Position numbers and translations under genes: made by a program | Origin: a bacterium | GTDB taxonomy: Bacteria > Patescibacteriota > Gracilibacteria > UM-FILTER-43-11 | Direction: 5' to 3' | DNA: 64,000 nucleotides | NCBI GenBank assembly: GCA_030427295.1 | Contig: JAUHWS010000001.1 | Coordinates: 14,079 to 78,078 of the forward strand | Notes under the pieces: generated by a model | The model's database searches: none | The model's input: only the letters and a program-made list of their open reading frames with translations | What the model was told of the DNA's origin: nothing | Shown here: positions 4,909 to 11,547 of the stretch, one piece after another | Numbering within the stretch: position 1 is the first letter of the stretch | Layout: each line of letters opens with the position of its first letter

Positions 4909-6471
4909 CTACTTCGCCACATCCATCGCACGAATTTCACGAATCACCTGCACCTTGATGGTTCCAGGATAAGCGAGTTCTTGCTCAATCTTTCGCGCAA
5001 TCTCATGAGAGAGTTTGATGGCCTGCATGTCATCCACATCCTTTGGACGAACAAACACCCGGATTTCACGACCCGCTTGGATGGCATACGCCTTTTCCAC
5101 TCCCTCAAACGAGGTGCCCACGCGTTCCAAATCCTTCAAGCGTCTCAAATAAGTCTCAACGGTTTCGCTACGAGCCCCCGGACGAGCCGCTGAAATCGCA
5201 TCAGCCGCTTGAACCACCAAAGCTTCAGCGGTATTCACCGGTATTTCTTCATGATGGGCCTCCACGGCGTGAACCACCTTCTCGGGCAAACCATATTTTC
5301 GCAAAATATCGGCCCCAATCAAGGCATGACTCCCTTCAATGTCGTGATCGACGGCCTTCCCAATGTCGTGCAAGAAGCCAGCGGTCTTAGCCGCTTGGGC
5401 ATCCGCCCCAATGCTGTCAGCAATTTGGCCTGCCAAAAAACCAACTTCCATACTGTGTTTCATCACATTTTGACCATAGCTGGTTCGAAAGCGTAGTCGT
5501 CCAATGATCTTGATCAAGTCTGGATGCAACCCTGTGATTCCCATTTCAAAGGCGGCCTTCTCCCCAAATTCTTTCATCATTTGATGAATTTCTTCCTTCG
5601 TTTCTTCCACAACCGACTCAATGCGGGCTGGGTGAATGCGACCATCTTCCACTAATTTTTCTAAAGCCCGCTTAGCGACGTAGCGACGCACCAAGTCAAA
5701 GCCAGAAATCATGATGGCATTTGGAGTGTCATCCACAATCACATCCACTCCCGTCAAATGTTCAAAGGCGTTAATGTTCCGCCCCTCCTTACCGATCACC
5801 CGGCCTTTAATATCATCATTTGGCAAAGCCACCATGGTCTGGGTCGATTCTGAGGTGACATCCGAAGCCATCTTCTGAATCGCAGATGCAATCACATTGG
5901 TCGCTTCTTTTTTGGCCTCCTCCTTAACTTCCTCATTCATTTGTTTGTAATGCTCCACCAGTTCATCTTTGTACTCCCGTTCCATATTATTCAAAAGCAT
6001 TTGACGGGCTTCTTCTTTCGTCAATTTGGTGATGTTAGCCAGTTTTTCCTCTTGTTCTTGATACAACGCTTCAATTTTATCTTCGGTCTGCTTGAGTTTT
6101 TCTTCACGTTGCTCATAAGCCAACTTCTGTTTCTCGATATCCGAAAGTTTTTTCTCTAAATTATCCTCCTTGGTGATGAGGCGTTCTTCATGTTTTTCAA
6201 GTTGTCGGCGCATGGACTGCTCTTCCTTTTTAGCCTCCTCAACAATTTCCAAGGCCTTGTTTTTAGCATCGACAATTTTCTCTTTCAGTTTGGTCTCGGC
6301 GTCAGCGGCTTTTCGTTCAAGTTCACTCAACTTCTTATCGGCCTGGGCAATCTTTTTTTGATTGGCCTCCTCAATCTTTCTTAGGTAATTGTTACCCTCC
6401 GACTTGAAGTAGATGTAAACACCAGCTGCACCAATGATTAAGCCAATAATGGCATAAATTAGGCTGCTCAT
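4909..6471 (-). CDS. rny: Ribonuclease Y
   Basis: N-terminal TM helix, long coiled-coil, KH domain (GRVIGKEGRNI) and HD domain (FLHDIGK). The ORF opens at TTG 6495; ATG 6471 (MSSLIYAIIG..) is the more likely start. Confidence 0.93.
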   Translation of the reverse strand: MSSLIYAIIGLIIGAAGVYIYFKSEGNNYLRKIEEANQKKIAQADKKLSELERKAADAETKLKEKIVDAKNKALEIVEEAKKEEQSMRRQLEKHEERLITKEDNLEKKLSDIEKQKLAYEQREEKLKQTEDKIEALYQEQEEKLANITKLTKEEARQMLLNNMEREYKDELVEHYKQMNEEVKEEAKKEATNVIASAIQKMASDVTSESTQTMVALPNDDIKGRVIGKEGRNINAFEHLTGVDVIVDDTPNAIMISGFDLVRRYVAKRALEKLVEDGRIHPARIESVVEETKEEIHQMMKEFGEKAAFEMGITGLHPDLIKIIGRLRFRTSYGQNVMKHSMEVGFLAGQIADSIGADAQAAKTAGFLHDIGKAVDHDIEGSHALIGADILRKYGLPEKVVHAVEAHHEEIPVNTAEALVVQAADAISAARPGARSETVETYLRRLKDLERVGTSFEGVEKAYAIQAGREIRVFVRPKDVDDMQAIKLSHEIARKIEQELAYPGTIKVQVIREIRAMDVAK

Positions 6472-6867
6472 AAATACAATAAGGTTACAGGTCAACCTTA
6501 AAGTTAATAAAACCGTTTTTTATTAATGATGATGGTGCTTTTCTTGCTTGAGTCTCGGTTTTTAGTTTGAACAGTGGGTCAAATGGATCAGTTATTTCAG
6601 AGTGCAAACAATCGGGGGATTCTACCATTCATTAGTCAAGGATAGCGCTTAGTCAACAGTTATTAACTCTAGGTCGATGTGATTAAAATAGTGCTGAATG
6701 ATCTCTCATTTAAATACAACAGAATATCAACAGACAAGATCAATCACCCTAATTATAGAATCATAAAATTTATTGTCAAATCATATTTTTTGGCTTAAGC
6801 AAGCTGAGCTTTTTTAAGGATGACTCAAACAAAAGATATTCCCAATAAAAAAAAGTACAAAAAAGAC

Positions 6868-6896
6868 TTGCATAATAAAAAATAATTTGGTATAAT
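6868..6896 (+). promoter_or_regulatory. Near-consensus sigma-70 promoter (TTGCAT-17-TATAAT)
   Basis: TTGCAT at 6868-6873, a 17-nt AT-rich spacer, TATAAT at 6891-6896. No ORF lies downstream on this strand. Confidence 0.65.
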
Positions 6897-6902
6897 GAAA
6901 TA

Positions 6903-7322
6903 TAACGTTAAGAAGAAGATCTTTAAAAACACAGTGCTGGTGAGAGAAACCTGCTAATGGAAACAAAAAATAAAAATTGATTTATTTTGATTGGCAAGTG
7001 ATGGGTCACATGTTGATCAATTGCTTTGCCCATCTTCCTTGGCAGGTTCCTCTCACTAATTGGATGGAGTTAATCAATCCTTCAAGACAAAAATAAAAGC
7101 GTGTTTTTCTTATCTCAACCCCCTTGAGGTCGGAGGATATGCACAATGTGTTTTGCTTCACTTCGGTGGACGCAAGACGTTTGACTTGTTGGAACTTAGG
7201 ATCCTGGACAGTTATCTCTTAGTCGGATAAGTGTTTGAGCCCTACGTTTTAACCACCACCTCTTGGTGAGAGAATAAAAAAACGGTACCACGATCCCTTC
7301 AATCGTGCGTACGGTTTTTTTG
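6903..7322 (+). ncRNA. Candidate orphan structured ncRNA (about 420 nt), class unknown
   Basis: It sits inside an 850-bp stretch (6496-7347) with no ORF of 60 aa or more in any frame, bounded by the promoter at 6868-6896 and an intrinsic terminator at about 7281-7322. Structural elements read by eye are a long-range pairing (ggtgagagaaacctgc at 6939-6954 with gcaggttcctctcac at 7042-7056), a UUCG-tetraloop hairpin (ttcacTTCGgtgga, about 7157-7170) and a 7-bp hairpin (atctcaaCCCCCttgaggt, about 7111-7129). Confidence 0.5.
7281..7322 (+). terminator. Intrinsic terminator (imperfect GC-containing hairpin plus T7 run)
   Basis: acggtaccacgat-cccttca-atcgtgcgtacggt followed by ttttttt. Confidence 0.6.
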
Positions 7323-7347
7323 TTTTAAAAATTATTTTGAAGCCCTT

Positions 7348-7959
7348 TTAAACACGTTGGACGTGATAAATTCCAGTCCTTTTAAATAGCCTATAAAATG
7401 CATAAACTGTTTGTCCATTTTGAGGTCCGGCTATTGCAAAAACAAAAGGTTGATTCGGTGAAATAAGACCATTCTCATAGTCTCTAGCAACATCTTCCAA
7501 ATCAGCCTGAGATGGATCGCAAGGATGTTGACCAGGGTTTAAATCATACACTGTTGTCGGATGAGTGTGCATGTCTCCAATCAATTGAACGTGACGATAT
7601 TCAGAAAATGACCCTTGTATGCCTCTCACGTACTCTTGCACTCCAGCCATGTCAACTGAAACATGATTCGAACCTTCGTTGTAAGCAAAAAGTCGCTGAT
7701 TTTCTTCGGGTGTAATTTCCACCACATGAGTGATTTCCACGTGAGCACTTGAATCTTCTAAATTCGTCCTTCCAAGAAGAATTCGATATCTTTCACGGCC
7801 AGCCTCCAAATCTTGTGGGTTCACTTCTGGAAAATACTGCCCAACATTTTCTGAGTATCCAATGCTTAGCTGTAAATTCTCATCTAAAAAATCCACCCCT
7901 TCCCTCTTTAGCTCGGGATTCTGATAATCATCGTTATGAAAATTTTCTCCAGTTCTCAT
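7348..7959 (-). CDS. JAB/MPN (JAMM) metallopeptidase-domain protein
   Basis: JAMM-like motif GDMHTHPTT..(insert)..PSQADLEDV (H-x-H ... S-x-x-D) in the C-terminal half. The N-terminal 120 aa have no recognisable domain. Confidence 0.6.
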   Translation of the reverse strand: MRTGENFHNDDYQNPELKREGVDFLDENLQLSIGYSENVGQYFPEVNPQDLEAGRERYRILLGRTNLEDSSAHVEITHVVEITPEENQRLFAYNEGSNHVSVDMAGVQEYVRGIQGSFSEYRHVQLIGDMHTHPTTVYDLNPGQHPCDPSQADLEDVARDYENGLISPNQPFVFAIAGPQNGQTVYAFYRLFKRTGIYHVQRV

Positions 7960-8008: not shown

Positions 8009-8245
8009 CTAATATACCCCCCCTACTGTTTCCAAAGCCAAAGGCGTATTATGCTGAGTTACTGCAAAATCTTCCCCGTCGCGCTCTACGGTGAGTCGCA
8101 ACGCACCACGCACGTCTTTGATCATTTTAGGCATCACCCCCCGTTTCACATGGGCTACAAACCCCTGCTTGCTGATGATTCCTCGATAATCTTCCATTTC
8201 AATCAGATCGAGTAATTCGAGTAGGGTGAGTTTTTTTGCAACCAT
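8009..8245 (-). CDS. Small hypothetical protein (78 aa) ending ..ALETVGGVY; possible ubiquitin-like/processed partner of the JAB protein
   Basis: Co-directional and 49 nt upstream of the JAB gene. A GG dipeptide lies 2 residues from the C-terminus. The fold assignment is not supported by any motif I can recognise. Confidence 0.35.
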   Translation of the reverse strand: MVAKKLTLLELLDLIEMEDYRGIISKQGFVAHVKRGVMPKMIKDVRGALRLTVERDGEDFAVTQHNTPLALETVGGVY

Positions 8246-8538: not shown

Positions 8539-11500
8539 ATGAAGAAACTTCTTTCATTTTTGCTTGCCTTCCAAGTCCTTTTTCAATTTCCCGCAGCTGT
8601 TTTAGCCGAGGGAGAAGAGACCCTTCAGGATCCACCCCAAGACGAACAAGTGGAGGACATCCCTAATGAGCCCGTTCCCGAAAACGAGCCTGAGCCCCTT
8701 CTCGAAGAGCCCGAAATCAAGATTGTACTCAACGAAATCCTTCCCGATCCTCTCGAATCCGATGCTGAAAATGAGTTTATCGAACTCTATAATGCTGGAG
8801 AAGCAGAAGTCGATCTAGCAGGGTGGTCATTGGATGATGTCGATTTAGACGACGAAGATATCTATCACTTCGACAACCCCGAACTCAATTATGTGCTTGA
8901 GCCCGATGGCTATCTCACTTTATTCAGACCAGAAACCAATATCACCCTGAACAACACAGGGGACATGGTTTATTTGTTCGATGATCAAGGCGATGAAATC
9001 GACTATTTTGAGTATTTAGACAGCTCAGCAGGAAGGTCGTGGGGACGCAACCTAGAAAATCCCGAAGAGTGGATCCTCTTGCCCAGTCCCAGTCCTGATG
9101 AAGCCAATGAATTTTTAAATGATCCGCCCACGGCAGTCATCACCCTTCAAGGAGGAACAGAGAACATGTCTATCAATGTGACTGGCGAAGACAGCAGTGA
9201 TCCCAATGGGGACAAGCTCAGTTACGTATGGGAATTTGAACCAGGAGTGACAGAAGAAAGTAAAAATCCTCTCACCTATATATATGCCACCGAAGGCCCC
9301 AAAACCATCACTCTCACTGTCACCGATGAGTTTGGTTTATCGGATGAGGTCACCCTCGACTTTATGGCTCAATCACCTCAACAAGAAGATCCAGAGGACG
9401 AAGAAGCTGAAGAGGGGGCTGAATCAGAATCCGATGAGGAAGAGGCGCCCGAGACTTATCCCACCCACCAACTCATCAATGAAATTCTTCCCAATCCTGA
9501 AGGGGCTGATGGAGAAGGGGAATGGATTGAACTCTTCAATTCGACTAACGAAATCATCGATCTGTCAGACTGGTATTTAGATGATGAAGAAGGTGCCAGT
9601 AGCCCCTTTCAAATCCCTCAGGATACTCAACTCCAACCTCAAACCTACTTGGTTTTTAAAGGGCTTGACCTCAACCTCTCCCTCAAAAATTCGGACGATG
9701 TGGTCAGACTCCTTAATCCCAACAAAGAAGAGGTCGAGCGAATTGAATACACAGAAGCCAAGGAGGCTCAAAGTTATGCCAAGCAGTCTGATGACTTATT
9801 CTCCTGGACCTCAACGGTGACCCCAAATGCAGAAAACAGCTTTCCGCCCCCACCCAAAACCTACCAAAAAGGCGATGTTTTGATCGACTCCGCGCTGCCT
9901 AATCCCGAAGGGGCTGACACCGGAAAGGAAAAGATAAAACTTAAGAACACCACTCCAGAGACCATCGACCTGTCCTACTGGAAAATCGCGGATAGCAGCA
10001 GCGAAACCGAGCTGCTCAACCTTTCCATTCCAGCCTATGGAATCAAAGAGCTCAATGCAGAGGATTTTAAATTCTCCCTCAACAACAGTGATGAATCGCT
10101 CACGCTCTACGACCCAACAGGCAACGTCATCGATGAGATAAGTTGGACCAGCTCAACATCAGGACTTTGGACCTTCAATCTCAACCTTCTTTCAGAAGGA
10201 ATGTCAGTCAGTGTGGTTGAGGTGGTCGATGGAGACACCTTCAAAGTGCAGGCAGGTAACAGAGAGCTGACCGTGCGACTGATTGGCGTGGACACCCCCG
10301 AAACCGTTCACCCCTCCAAACCGGTTGAGTATTACGGTAAACAAGCATCAGACTTCCTCAAAAACTTACTTCAAAACCAAACTGTTCGTTTGTATTTTGA
10401 TGAACGTAAAACAGACAGTTATGGTCGAGTTTTAGCTTATGTTTACCTCCACGACACCCTAGTGAATGTCAAAATGATCCAAGAAGGCTATGGCTATGCC
10501 TACACCCGATTTCCCTTTGTTCGCCTAGATGAATTTATTGCTTACGAAGAAGAGGCGAGGACTGCCGGGCGAGGGCTTTGGGCAGATGAAGACGTGGTGG
10601 AGGTGATCGAGGAATTGATTGAAGAAAACGCTCAAAATAAAGGCAAAGTGGAAGCTGAAGTCAAGTCAATTCCTGAGAATGAGGAAGAAATTGATGATGA
10701 AGACGGAGCTCCCAAAAATACTGATGAAGAAAAGGTTGACGATGAGTTGGGAAAAGATTGTGATTCCGACACCCTCAAAATCGATTCCTTCTTGGCGTAT
10801 GCGGAAAAAGGGGTTTCCGAGGAATTTATCACCCTCATCAATACGGGGGACCAGCCTGTCTGTTTGTCTGGATGGCAGTTGGATGACGAATTGGAGGGAG
10901 GTTCAAAACCTTTCACCATAAAGGAGGGTGAAATCGCTCCAGGGAAAACCATGGAATTTGGGAAAGAGATCAGCAAAATTTCCCTCAATAATTCCAATGA
11001 CTGTGCCAGCTTAATTCGGCCCAACGGAGAATTAGCAGATCAGATCTGCTATGGCAAAACGAGTAAAGGGGAAATCCTCACTCACGCTGGAAGCGCCGGA
11101 GCTTCCGAAAAATCAAGTTCCAAAAAAACCACTTCGTCGTCCAAAAAATCCTCTAAAAAAAATGAGGAAAAACCTGCCAAGCACACCTTCAAACGTGACA
11201 GTACTTCCTATCGAGGAGAGTTGGTCAATAAAAGTTACGCAGGATGGGTCGTGGGCTTTGATCAAGATGAGCAAGTATTGGTACTCAAGCTAGACGATGA
11301 AAAGCTCAAGCCCATTTCCTATGCTCACAGTTTGTTCGATATCGATACGATTAAAGATTTAGCTGATTTGTCCGAGGAGGTTGTGTTGGATGTTTATGAA
11401 ACCCCTGATGAAGCACACTTGATTTCCATGCACTCCTCGGCACCAGAACAGATCAAAAAACACTCATGGGCTCACCTATTTCCATTTATCCTGATTCCTG

Positions 11501-11547
11501 TCCTTCTCACAGGACTCATTGCCTACAAAAAATTTGGCCTCAAGTGA
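8539..11547 (+). CDS. Membrane-anchored extracellular multidomain nuclease (signal peptide, 4-5 lamin-tail domains, PKD domain, staphylococcal-nuclease/thermonuclease domain, C-terminal TM anchor)
   Basis: LTD motifs (LNEILPDP..EFIELYN..DLAGWSLDD, repeated); PKD (DPNGDKLSYVWEF..TITLTVTDEFGLSDEV); SNase (VVDGDTFKV..VRLIGVDTPE..YGRVLAYVY..QEGYGYAY..ARTAGRGLWA); N-terminal signal peptide; C-terminal hydrophobic helix. Confidence 0.88.
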   Translation: MKKLLSFLLAFQVLFQFPAAVLAEGEETLQDPPQDEQVEDIPNEPVPENEPEPLLEEPEIKIVLNEILPDPLESDAENEFIELYNAGEAEVDLAGWSLDDVDLDDEDIYHFDNPELNYVLEPDGYLTLFRPETNITLNNTGDMVYLFDDQGDEIDYFEYLDSSAGRSWGRNLENPEEWILLPSPSPDEANEFLNDPPTAVITLQGGTENMSINVTGEDSSDPNGDKLSYVWEFEPGVTEESKNPLTYIYATEGPKTITLTVTDEFGLSDEVTLDFMAQSPQQEDPEDEEAEEGAESESDEEEAPETYPTHQLINEILPNPEGADGEGEWIELFNSTNEIIDLSDWYLDDEEGASSPFQIPQDTQLQPQTYLVFKGLDLNLSLKNSDDVVRLLNPNKEEVERIEYTEAKEAQSYAKQSDDLFSWTSTVTPNAENSFPPPPKTYQKGDVLIDSALPNPEGADTGKEKIKLKNTTPETIDLSYWKIADSSSETELLNLSIPAYGIKELNAEDFKFSLNNSDESLTLYDPTGNVIDEISWTSSTSGLWTFNLNLLSEGMSVSVVEVVDGDTFKVQAGNRELTVRLIGVDTPETVHPSKPVEYYGKQASDFLKNLLQNQTVRLYFDERKTDSYGRVLAYVYLHDTLVNVKMIQEGYGYAYTRFPFVRLDEFIAYEEEARTAGRGLWADEDVVEVIEELIEENAQNKGKVEAEVKSIPENEEEIDDEDGAPKNTDEEKVDDELGKDCDSDTLKIDSFLAYAEKGVSEEFITLINTGDQPVCLSGWQLDDELEGGSKPFTIKEGEIAPGKTMEFGKEISKISLNNSNDCASLIRPNGELADQICYGKTSKGEILTHAGSAGASEKSSSKKTTSSSKKSSKKNEEKPAKHTFKRDSTSYRGELVNKSYAGWVVGFDQDEQVLVLKLDDEKLKPISYAHSLFDIDTIKDLADLSEEVVLDVYETPDEAHLISMHSSAPEQIKKHSWAHLFPFILIPVLLTGLIAYKKFGLK

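Follow-up and report, generated by a model that had tools for sequence, protein, structure and literature searches.

The question raised by this locus is what occupies an 852-bp spacer, positions 6496–7347 of a 64-kb window (the whole stretch of DNA that was analyzed, 64,000 nucleotides of contig JAUHWS010000001.1), which separates the gene for ribonuclease Y (RNase Y; rny, 4909–6471, minus strand) from a 203-residue open reading frame (ORF) at 7348–7959 of the minus strand. An earlier, sequence-only reading of the window had noted that the spacer holds no ORF of 60 or more residues, which was borne out (the longest have 56 residues on the plus strand and 51 on the minus strand), and had proposed that it encodes a stand-alone non-coding RNA (ncRNA) of about 420 nt. 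Our analysis supports that proposal. Positions 6903–7321 of the plus strand very probably represent an independent gene for a structured ncRNA of an undescribed family which, as sampled, belongs to one clade of Peregrinibacteria, and whose promoter, terminator and helices are kept through compensatory changes in homologues. Large structured ncRNAs are a known class in bacteria; this family is a new one among them and is unusual in its modularity. The best explanation overall, which we judge reasonably probable when taken as a whole, couples this new-family RNA gene to a protein-binding scaffold or decoy mechanism that is by itself tentative.

The transcription signals proposed by the sequence-only reading, a promoter with TTGCAT and TATAAT boxes 17 nt apart and, about 420 nt downstream, a hairpin followed by seven T residues, are both present. 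The promoter lies at 6868–6896 of the plus strand (-35 box 6868–6873, -10 box 6891–6896), and a TG at 6888–6889, which that reading had not mentioned, makes it an extended -10 promoter (TGgTATAAT, 6888–6896). A consensus promoter scanner passed over it because TTGCAT matches TTGACA at just three of six positions. All of the homologues described below keep CTTGC or CTTGT, about 17 nt, TTTGnTATAAT and then RUAUGAAAC. The transcript would start about 7 nt past the -10 box with a 5' leader (6903–6938, plus strand) that contains GAUCUUUAAAAA and whose motif, RAUGMUCYUUAAAAA, is conserved at the nucleotide level. No pairing partner backed by covariation was found for the leader, and a helix between the leader and UUUAAC that had been drawn by eye was dropped, as it shows no covariation and RNAalifold pairs UUUAAC with GUUGGA and CUAAG with CUUAG. 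The terminator at 7276–7321 consists of an A7 tract (7276–7282), a bulged hairpin (7283–7314) that forms in the minimum free energy (MFE) fold, and a U7 tract (7315–7321), and was missed by a terminator scanner because the hairpin is bulged. Being bidirectional, it is shared with the convergent gene at 7348–7959 (minus strand), lying 27 nt past the stop codon of that gene; a bidirectional terminator alone is no proof of a plus-strand transcript. Every homologue with a recovered 3' end (all except L046 and the contig-truncated L132) ends with a G+C-rich hairpin, unrelated in sequence, between an A-tract and a U-tract; the sequence of this terminator hairpin (helix 7 of the consensus) differs among homologues, and its pairing is kept. 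As read from the sequence, a conserved promoter and an intrinsic terminator thus stand in the correct order and on the correct strand for a sigma-70 transcription unit. The unit is not the leader of another gene, as the sequence-only reading had also argued: there is no downstream gene on the same strand, and the next genes are convergent both in the window and at the homologous loci.

Among the checks that reading had named are a search for homologues in related genomes with nhmmer and a cmscan search against Rfam, and both were carried out. The region proved to be conserved, with compensatory changes, in 16 further, distinct Peregrinibacteria genome and metagenome contigs. Searching with the spacer by nhmmer found it in five genome contigs (L002, L003, L004, L006, and L046), in all of which it lies on the strand opposite to rny and upstream of it. 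When 241 million metagenome records were scanned for a pattern irrespective of context, 68 stretches came back, of which seven are true homologues (L054, L058, L102, L105, L107, L108, and L120) and the remainder chance matches; rny adjoins six of these seven, and the seventh contig ends before it. Contigs encoding graded relatives of RNase Y were also fetched and added L124, L130, L131, L132, L133, and L192. (L107 is almost a repeat of L102, and over the RNA L108 does not differ from L004; each pair is counted once in the 16.) Wherever the flank exists, the RNA is directly upstream of rny and head-to-head with it, the usual order being the 78-residue protein gene discussed below, the RNA on the opposite strand, and rny on the strand of the 78-residue protein gene.

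Within the RNA-bearing clade, RNase Y is 66–84% identical to that of the window. The RNA is cleanly absent from L129 (83% RNase Y identity), L122/L123 (77%), and L125/L126 and L127/L128 (69%); in L129 and L122 the -35 region (TTGACA) of the rny promoter can be read in a short spacer from which the RNA is missing. This absence from sister genomes argues that the RNA is dispensable, an accessory rather than a housekeeping element. None of the RNase Y loci examined outside the clade has the RNA. At about 2120–2200 of L129, on the ncRNA strand, a degenerate CTTGAT..TTTTATATTCATAT resembles the ncRNA promoter, which suggests that L129 lost the RNA by deletion, rather than that its lineage lacked the RNA before a gain. 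A phage or other mobile origin was also considered and rejected: two scans of IMG/VR returned chance matches only, nhmmer returned nothing, and no transposase, reverse transcriptase or integrase gene adjoins the RNA.

The cmscan search covered the 4227 covariance models of Rfam 15, both at the gathering score and at E <= 10, and gave no confident match to the RNA, so the claim of novelty stands. At the gathering score only a tRNA was found in the whole window and only tRNAs in 12 homologous loci. At E <= 10 the region yielded chance matches to eukaryotic microRNA and small nucleolar RNA families, the best being the plant microRNA MIR4416 (20.7 bits, against a gathering score of 70), and the best match in L124 was sub-threshold noise (22 bits, against 54). 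The sequence-only reading had found no signature of RNase P RNA, tmRNA, SRP RNA or 6S RNA, and the searches agree with it on all four. Bacterial RNase P RNA, which forms its P4 helix from CR-I (GGAAAGUCC) and CR-V, is essential and universal within a clade; no RNase P model matched even at E <= 10, and the present RNA is absent from the close relatives L129 and L122. ARAGORN detected no tmRNA in the window or in seven homologous loci, and the RNA ends in an intrinsic terminator, not in CCA. 6S RNA folds as one long hairpin opened by a central bubble, and SRP RNA is marked by domain IV with its GNRA loop and symmetric and asymmetric loops; cmscan matched neither, and the architecture found here is multi-domain instead. 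Neither OLE, ROOL, GOLLD, HEARO nor raiA was among the matches at the gathering score or at E <= 10, nor was a bacterial Y RNA matched, and there is no rsr among the predicted neighbors. In the papers searched we found no ncRNA family of this kind described for Peregrinibacteria, and likewise none among those that broader searches on structured RNAs and on the candidate phyla radiation (CPR) listed.

The predicted fold is unusually stable, with an MFE of -139.3 kcal/mol for the plus strand against -99.9 +/- 5.6 for shuffled sequences (z = -7.0); the minus strand gave z = -5.6. Its 5' part is a module, a Y-shaped three-way junction of helices P1, P2 and P3, present in a single copy in the window (6935–7057, plus strand). 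P1 pairs the purine-rich strand A (6939–6962, GGUGAGAGAAACCUGCUAAUGG) with the pyrimidine-rich strand B (7035–7057, ..CCUUGGCAGGUUCCUCUCACU). This is the long-range helix that the sequence-only reading had drawn between 6939–6954 and 7042–7056; it is real and extends to about 22 bp (22–25 bp in the family), with its outer 8 bp almost invariant and its inner part covarying. P2 (6967–6988) is an A/U hairpin of the module MFE fold that has four pairs in the consensus and is missing in L046, L124, and L133. P3 (6989–7034) is a long hairpin with an internal loop, in which most pairs show compensatory changes; in homologues it is between about 40 and 160 nt long.

RNAalifold recovered the same fold from 11 modules, with double-sided changes in 19 of 42 pairs. 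A covariance model, R1, built from these 11 modules found every module on the expected strand (30–131 bits), each antisense match (16–49 bits) being well below its sense counterpart, which scored about twice as high; on the window the scores were 71.6 bits (E = 1e-14) for the plus strand and 35.2 bits for the minus strand. When 19 modules were aligned to the model, double-sided changes were counted in 25 of the 42 pairs. The module is also a repeatable unit, as it occurs twice in tandem in L120 (4552–4830) and L130 (2190–1712, minus strand) and three times in L124 (2498–2066, minus strand), in which the RNA reaches about 800 nt (420–850 nt across the family). In L130 the duplicated stretch takes in the leader motif GAUCUUUAAAAAG, and P3 is enlarged in each copy by insertions of more than 100 nt. 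Such duplications and triplications suggest recurrent unequal recombination.

An A-rich single strand (ACAAAAAUAAAA) is almost invariant while the helices around it covary. Each module contains it once and the 3' domain adds a further copy, such that an RNA with n modules has n+1 copies. Copy 1 in the window (6960–6976, GAAACAAAAAAUAAAAA) spans the junction J1/2 and the 5' strand of P2, which part of the motif forms in most members; at this junction GAAACAAAAAyAAA is close to invariant across all 19 modules. Copy 2 (7087–7099, ACAAAAAUAAAAG) is the single-stranded linker that opens the 3' domain, where the motif reads ACA(G/A)AAAUAAAAG and is unpaired.

The 3' domain, of about 220 nt and with helices P4 to P7, was examined in an alignment (A3) of ten members that joined the leader, a stub of P1 and all sequence 3' of strand B. 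In its RNAalifold consensus ACAGAAAUAAAAG is unpaired and invariant or nearly so, and it also occurs in L124, L133, and L006. P4 (7099–7144) is the hairpin with a CCCCC loop (7119–7123) and P5 (7153–7176) the hairpin with a UUCG loop (7162–7165), both of which the sequence-only reading had recognized; double-sided changes affect 9 of 14 pairs in the former (helices 2–3) and three of four in the latter (helix 4), the sequence of P5 being unconserved. P6 (7188–7253; helix 5), built from GUUGGA:UUUAAC, CUUAG:CUAAG and an inner hairpin, has 24 pairs, eight of them with double-sided changes, and 93.7% of its cells paired, and it persists once the distant L006 and L124 are added. The hairpin cacc-UCUU-ggtg that the same reading had drawn is P7 (7257–7268; helix 6, overlapping the start of the second purine-rich copy discussed below). 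It is present, but what homologues keep of it is a weak helix of 3–5 bp only (two of five pairs with double-sided changes).

For the 3' domain with the P1 stub as a whole, 93.1% of cells are paired, against 87.4 +/- 0.6 in shuffles, and 29 of 80 pairs have double-sided changes, against 14.9 +/- 2.4, a count that none of 500 shuffles attained. Sliding the partners by 1–3 columns as a control lowered pairing to 43–52%. The 3' alignment also contains invariant G-U pairs (e.g., columns 241:304, 242:303, and 68:76), which would turn into C-A mismatches on the complementary strand and therefore count in favor of a sense-strand RNA. The domain is variable in extent: L006, L124, and L133 have insertions of 100–300 nt, L046 retains the module only, and L002 has lost the whole domain with the element before the terminator and the terminator itself kept. 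Two tertiary contacts were considered and discarded, a GAAA-tetraloop receptor in UAUGG/CUAAG, because its two halves do not face each other across a single helix, and a pseudoknot of the C-rich P4 loop with the GGG of UAUGGGU, because the window has the loop but lacks the GGG.

The element retained in L002, A' (7265–7274, plus strand, GGUGAGAGAA), repeats the first ten bases of strand A just before the terminator, so that strand B is complementary to both A and A'. The sequence-only reading had noticed this repeat at 6939 and 7265 and its complement near 7050, and we could confirm it: the 64 kb contains GGTGAGAGAA at these two places and nowhere else, and both copies are complementary to 7048–7057. 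A' is kept in every homologue with a 3' end, and A':B is 94% paired. The pair B7:A'8 is U-A in four of ten aligned sequences and C-G in another four, with the matching position of A never changing; a tally made by eye that added L002, L006, L124, L133, and L192 gave A-U in five, G-C in six, A.C in one (the window) and U.U in three. Only L046 departs from the otherwise invariant outer eight pairs of P1; it has three compensatory changes there and no A' within the roughly 75 nt read past its strand B; invariance in all but this A'-less member is expected if B must normally satisfy two partners. The third module of L124 lacks the GGUGAGAG part of A, which leaves its strand B free for A'. When A was barred from pairing, A' paired with B in the MFE fold of six of seven evaluated homologues (in the seventh, L054, the search pattern caught the terminator instead of A'). 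On the strength of these models A:B is the predicted ground state, and A':B is a plausible, not proven, second state. By default, then, A would pair with B, and A':B could replace the outer 8–10 bp of that helix once A were bound, cleaved or displaced, so that one copy of GGUGAGAGAA would always be exposed.

From the rigid helices, the repeatable module and the n+1 A-rich strands we infer a design for binding protein, as a scaffold or a decoy, for which CrcZ and CsrB offer analogues. The helices would display the A-rich strands as putative sites for a single-strand RNA-binding protein, which would make the RNA a scaffold or decoy in RNA turnover. The prime candidate for a partner, or for a processing enzyme, would be the product of the neighboring gene, the membrane-bound RNase Y with its KH and HD domains, because there are precedents in Y RNA with rsr and in OLE with oapA. 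The mechanism, scaffold or decoy role included, is argued by analogy and is tentative, and we give it distinctly less credence than the existence of the RNA gene. We think it unlikely that the RNA is a dedicated subunit of an RNase Y ribonucleoprotein, its modules docking RNase Y at the membrane and A, A' and B acting as a switch, or else a new large ribozyme; if the former were true, RNase Y, a major endonuclease of the Gram-positive type, would have its first known RNA cofactor, guide or gatekeeper.

Several points weigh against the scaffold or decoy interpretation. The partner protein was guessed from gene neighborhood, and in a spacer rich in A+T, an A-rich sequence says little for a specific binding site. 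The homologues are close (RNase Y identity of at least 66%), such that their synteny with rny could be inheritance alone, and the family is small and patchy, making a lineage-specific or even selfish role conceivable. As to the alternative pairings that the sequence-only reading had suggested, one A':B pair does covary and A' does take B if A is blocked, but the covariation is that of a single pair, a score as high as the observed one arises in 15 of 500 shuffles, the window itself has the mismatched A.C there, and A:B is favored over A':B by 2.2–15.3 kcal/mol (7.5 in the window).

Of the alternatives, the one that survives best, although we consider it unlikely, is that of a base-pairing regulatory RNA or conformational switch, in which the exposed GGUGAGAGAA (A' by default) would pair in trans with UUCUCUCACC-like targets or with strand B of another molecule to give a dimer, the rest of the RNA being a stabilizing scaffold. 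It would account for the retention of A', even in L002 without its 3' domain, for purine elements always being one more than pyrimidine elements, and for the extent of A':B complementarity. However, complementary sites in the window are not in excess (eight matches with at most one mismatch, against 4.7 expected), about 400 nt of covarying structure far exceeds the needs of a small RNA that presents a seed, and there is no target that we could name.

Marginally less likely, and on a par with the RNase Y subunit or ribozyme proposal, is a precursor from which one small RNA per module would be released, with the P1 stems as RNase III sites or the A-rich junctions as RNase Y sites. P1 is unusually long and regular, a near-perfect helix of 22–25 bp with conserved sequence, the modules stand in tandem like processing units, and A' could re-pair with B after cleavage. 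However, the would-be products, P2 and P3, are the least conserved parts in both sequence and length (40–160 nt), and the conserved 3' domain is left unaccounted for. A stand-alone ligand sensor, its modules acting as aptamers (in tandem as in glycine riboswitches) and its ligand selecting A:B or A':B, is improbable. The three-way junction with invariant junction nucleotides, the tandem copies and the possibility of mutually exclusive helices are all consistent with a sensor, but no locus has a downstream gene on the same strand, the conserved bases are nearly all A, unlike known aptamer cores, and the terminator hairpin overlaps neither A' nor B.

It is more improbable still that a small protein or leader peptide lies behind the conservation (the sequence-only reading had itself raised a short protein-coding gene). 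Seven members (L054, L058, L102, L105, L120, L003, and L132) do have a five-codon mini-ORF, M-[LIF]-[LIF]-K-N-stop, in the leader, but a start codon for it is lacking in the window, L133, and L046, L004 has only a TTG that opens a three-codon frame, in other members the frame continues for differing lengths, and the Shine-Dalgarno (SD)-like purines abut the AUG. No conserved ORF was found in the RNA: no ORF of at least 20 residues is shared beyond what nucleotide identity gives, position, length and frame differ between homologues, and the alignment gaps are often of 1–2 nt, the insertions and deletions not being multiples of three. Finally, a very divergent RNase P RNA, tmRNA, 6S RNA or SRP RNA is close to refuted, as the fitting size (for RNase P RNA or tmRNA) and an ACAGAAA in homologues that resembles CR-V of RNase P RNA are outweighed by the lack of any such Rfam family at E <= 10 or, in the 12 homologous loci, at the gathering score, by the negative ARAGORN result, by close relatives without the RNA and by the varying number of modules.

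The window stems from a CPR bacterium of the Peregrinibacteria or Peribacteria type, and the predicted neighbors of the RNA are RNase Y, a 78-residue orphan protein, a JAB protein, and LTD/SNase and PurA-like proteins. RNase_Y_N, KH and HD domains were found in the rny product, whose nearest relatives (80–93% identity) are in metagenome-assembled genomes labeled Candidatus Peregrinibacteria, Peribacteria or Patescibacteria. The promoter of rny (6752–6779, minus strand) is TTGACA-16-TATAAT, a 12 of 12 match to the consensus that is conserved also in homologues without the ncRNA, and rny and the ncRNA are divergently transcribed from promoters about 90 bp apart. This perfect consensus sigma-70 promoter sets a 5' untranslated region (UTR) of about 270 nt for rny, the sequence of which is unconserved except for a hairpin at the ribosome binding site (RBS) and, in a subgroup, AAAAAUUAAAACGUUCC. 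As this last motif is conserved in that subgroup of rny leaders only, an A-rich motif shared between the ncRNA and the rny leader was rejected as too weak, and RNAduplex of the ncRNA with the rny 5' UTR gave only long-loop solutions without meaning. The RBS hairpin, (G/A)AGGUUa..N..uAACCUU, lies at 6481–6499, directly upstream of the rny start codon, where it sequesters an SD-like GAGG. It is found at the same position in L002–L004, L054, L120, L122, L124, L129–L133, and L192, with variant stems in L006, L125, and L127, and is conserved in most of 19 aligned Peregrinibacteria rny loci whether the ncRNA is present or not. The hairpin may act in the translation or autoregulation of rny.

On the other side of the RNA, the 203-residue ORF at 7348–7959 (minus strand) has a weak match to Prok-JAB/MPN (an HxH...SxxD motif) and is inserted between the ncRNA and the gene for the 78-residue protein; tblastn found no copy of it in 15 related loci, and it is an insertion peculiar to the window genome. 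The 78-residue ORF (8009–8245, minus strand) represents an orphan family of 19 clusters that is restricted to the ncRNA-bearing clade. It was considered as the RNA-binding partner and set aside, as it had no Pfam or PADLOC hits, its structural model, although confident (predicted local distance difference test score of 84), matched no fold in the PDB, and the gene is found even where the RNA is absent. Five of its homologues (P0129, P0131, P0134, P0136, and P0138) have a genomically encoded C-terminal extension that resembles the SsrA degradation tag, ending in ..PANDNGIDYMNQAA or ..ANQNNERYDLAA (e.g., L192, 1285–1332). Further along, 8539–11547 (plus strand) encodes a secreted-looking protein of 1002 residues with three LTD domains, PKD repeats and a staphylococcal-nuclease domain, which is a conserved neighbor in L127 and L129 as well.

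CPR genomes are small and have little spare DNA, and an accessory RNA of 420–850 nt under structural selection is unexpected there. The head-to-head position with rny leads to the testable hypothesis that RNase Y activity may be controlled by an RNA, and the natural variants (with one, two or three modules, without the 3' domain, or without A') represent ready material for work on structure and function.

Among known RNAs, the repeated short invariant single-stranded motif between helices recalls CrcZ, with its A-rich sites for Hfq/Crc, and CsrB/RsmZ, with their GGA loops, and as in such protein-sequestering small RNAs the motif varies in copy number between relatives. The A-rich motif resembles the CA motifs of CrcZ, and CrcZ is the sole Rfam family that touches it, cmscan aligning CrcZ exactly there; the score is, however, 10.7 bits against a gathering score of 95, too low for homology. 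In contrast to CsrB/RsmZ, GGA is not conserved here (AAGAAAC in L054, L058, and L003), and unlike in any of these RNAs the helices are far larger and themselves conserved, the partner here being putative. In being a modular ncRNA beside the gene of an RNA-degradation factor, and in having a long conserved stem formed from distant strands, the RNA is like the bacterial Y RNAs beside rsr, whose machine of Ro, Y RNA and PNPase is a precedent for an RNA and a nuclease gene paired as a ribonucleoprotein. It differs in that the locus has no rsr, tRNA-like module or Rfam match to Y RNA, and its neighbor is RNase Y and not Ro. The choice of the middle strand B between A and A', with a terminator following, has the 1:2 / 2:3 logic of attenuators and riboswitch platforms, although some 210 nt separate B from A', the terminator hairpin does not depend on either, and no downstream gene is controlled.

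To our knowledge, only a small number of families of large bacterial ncRNAs with intricate folds are on record, and those that have been studied (RNase P RNA, tmRNA, group I and II introns, OLE, ROOL and GOLLD) proved to be ribozymes, ribonucleoproteins or self-assembling particles. The present RNA shares with OLE, ROOL, GOLLD and raiA a stand-alone gene of more than 400 nt, many covarying helices with invariant single-stranded bases and a narrow range, and its link to one neighboring protein gene parallels that of OLE to oapA. It matches none of the four in sequence or structure, and its host phylum is CPR. None of these four is known to be built from a module that can be repeated in tandem, whereas the RNA described here is.

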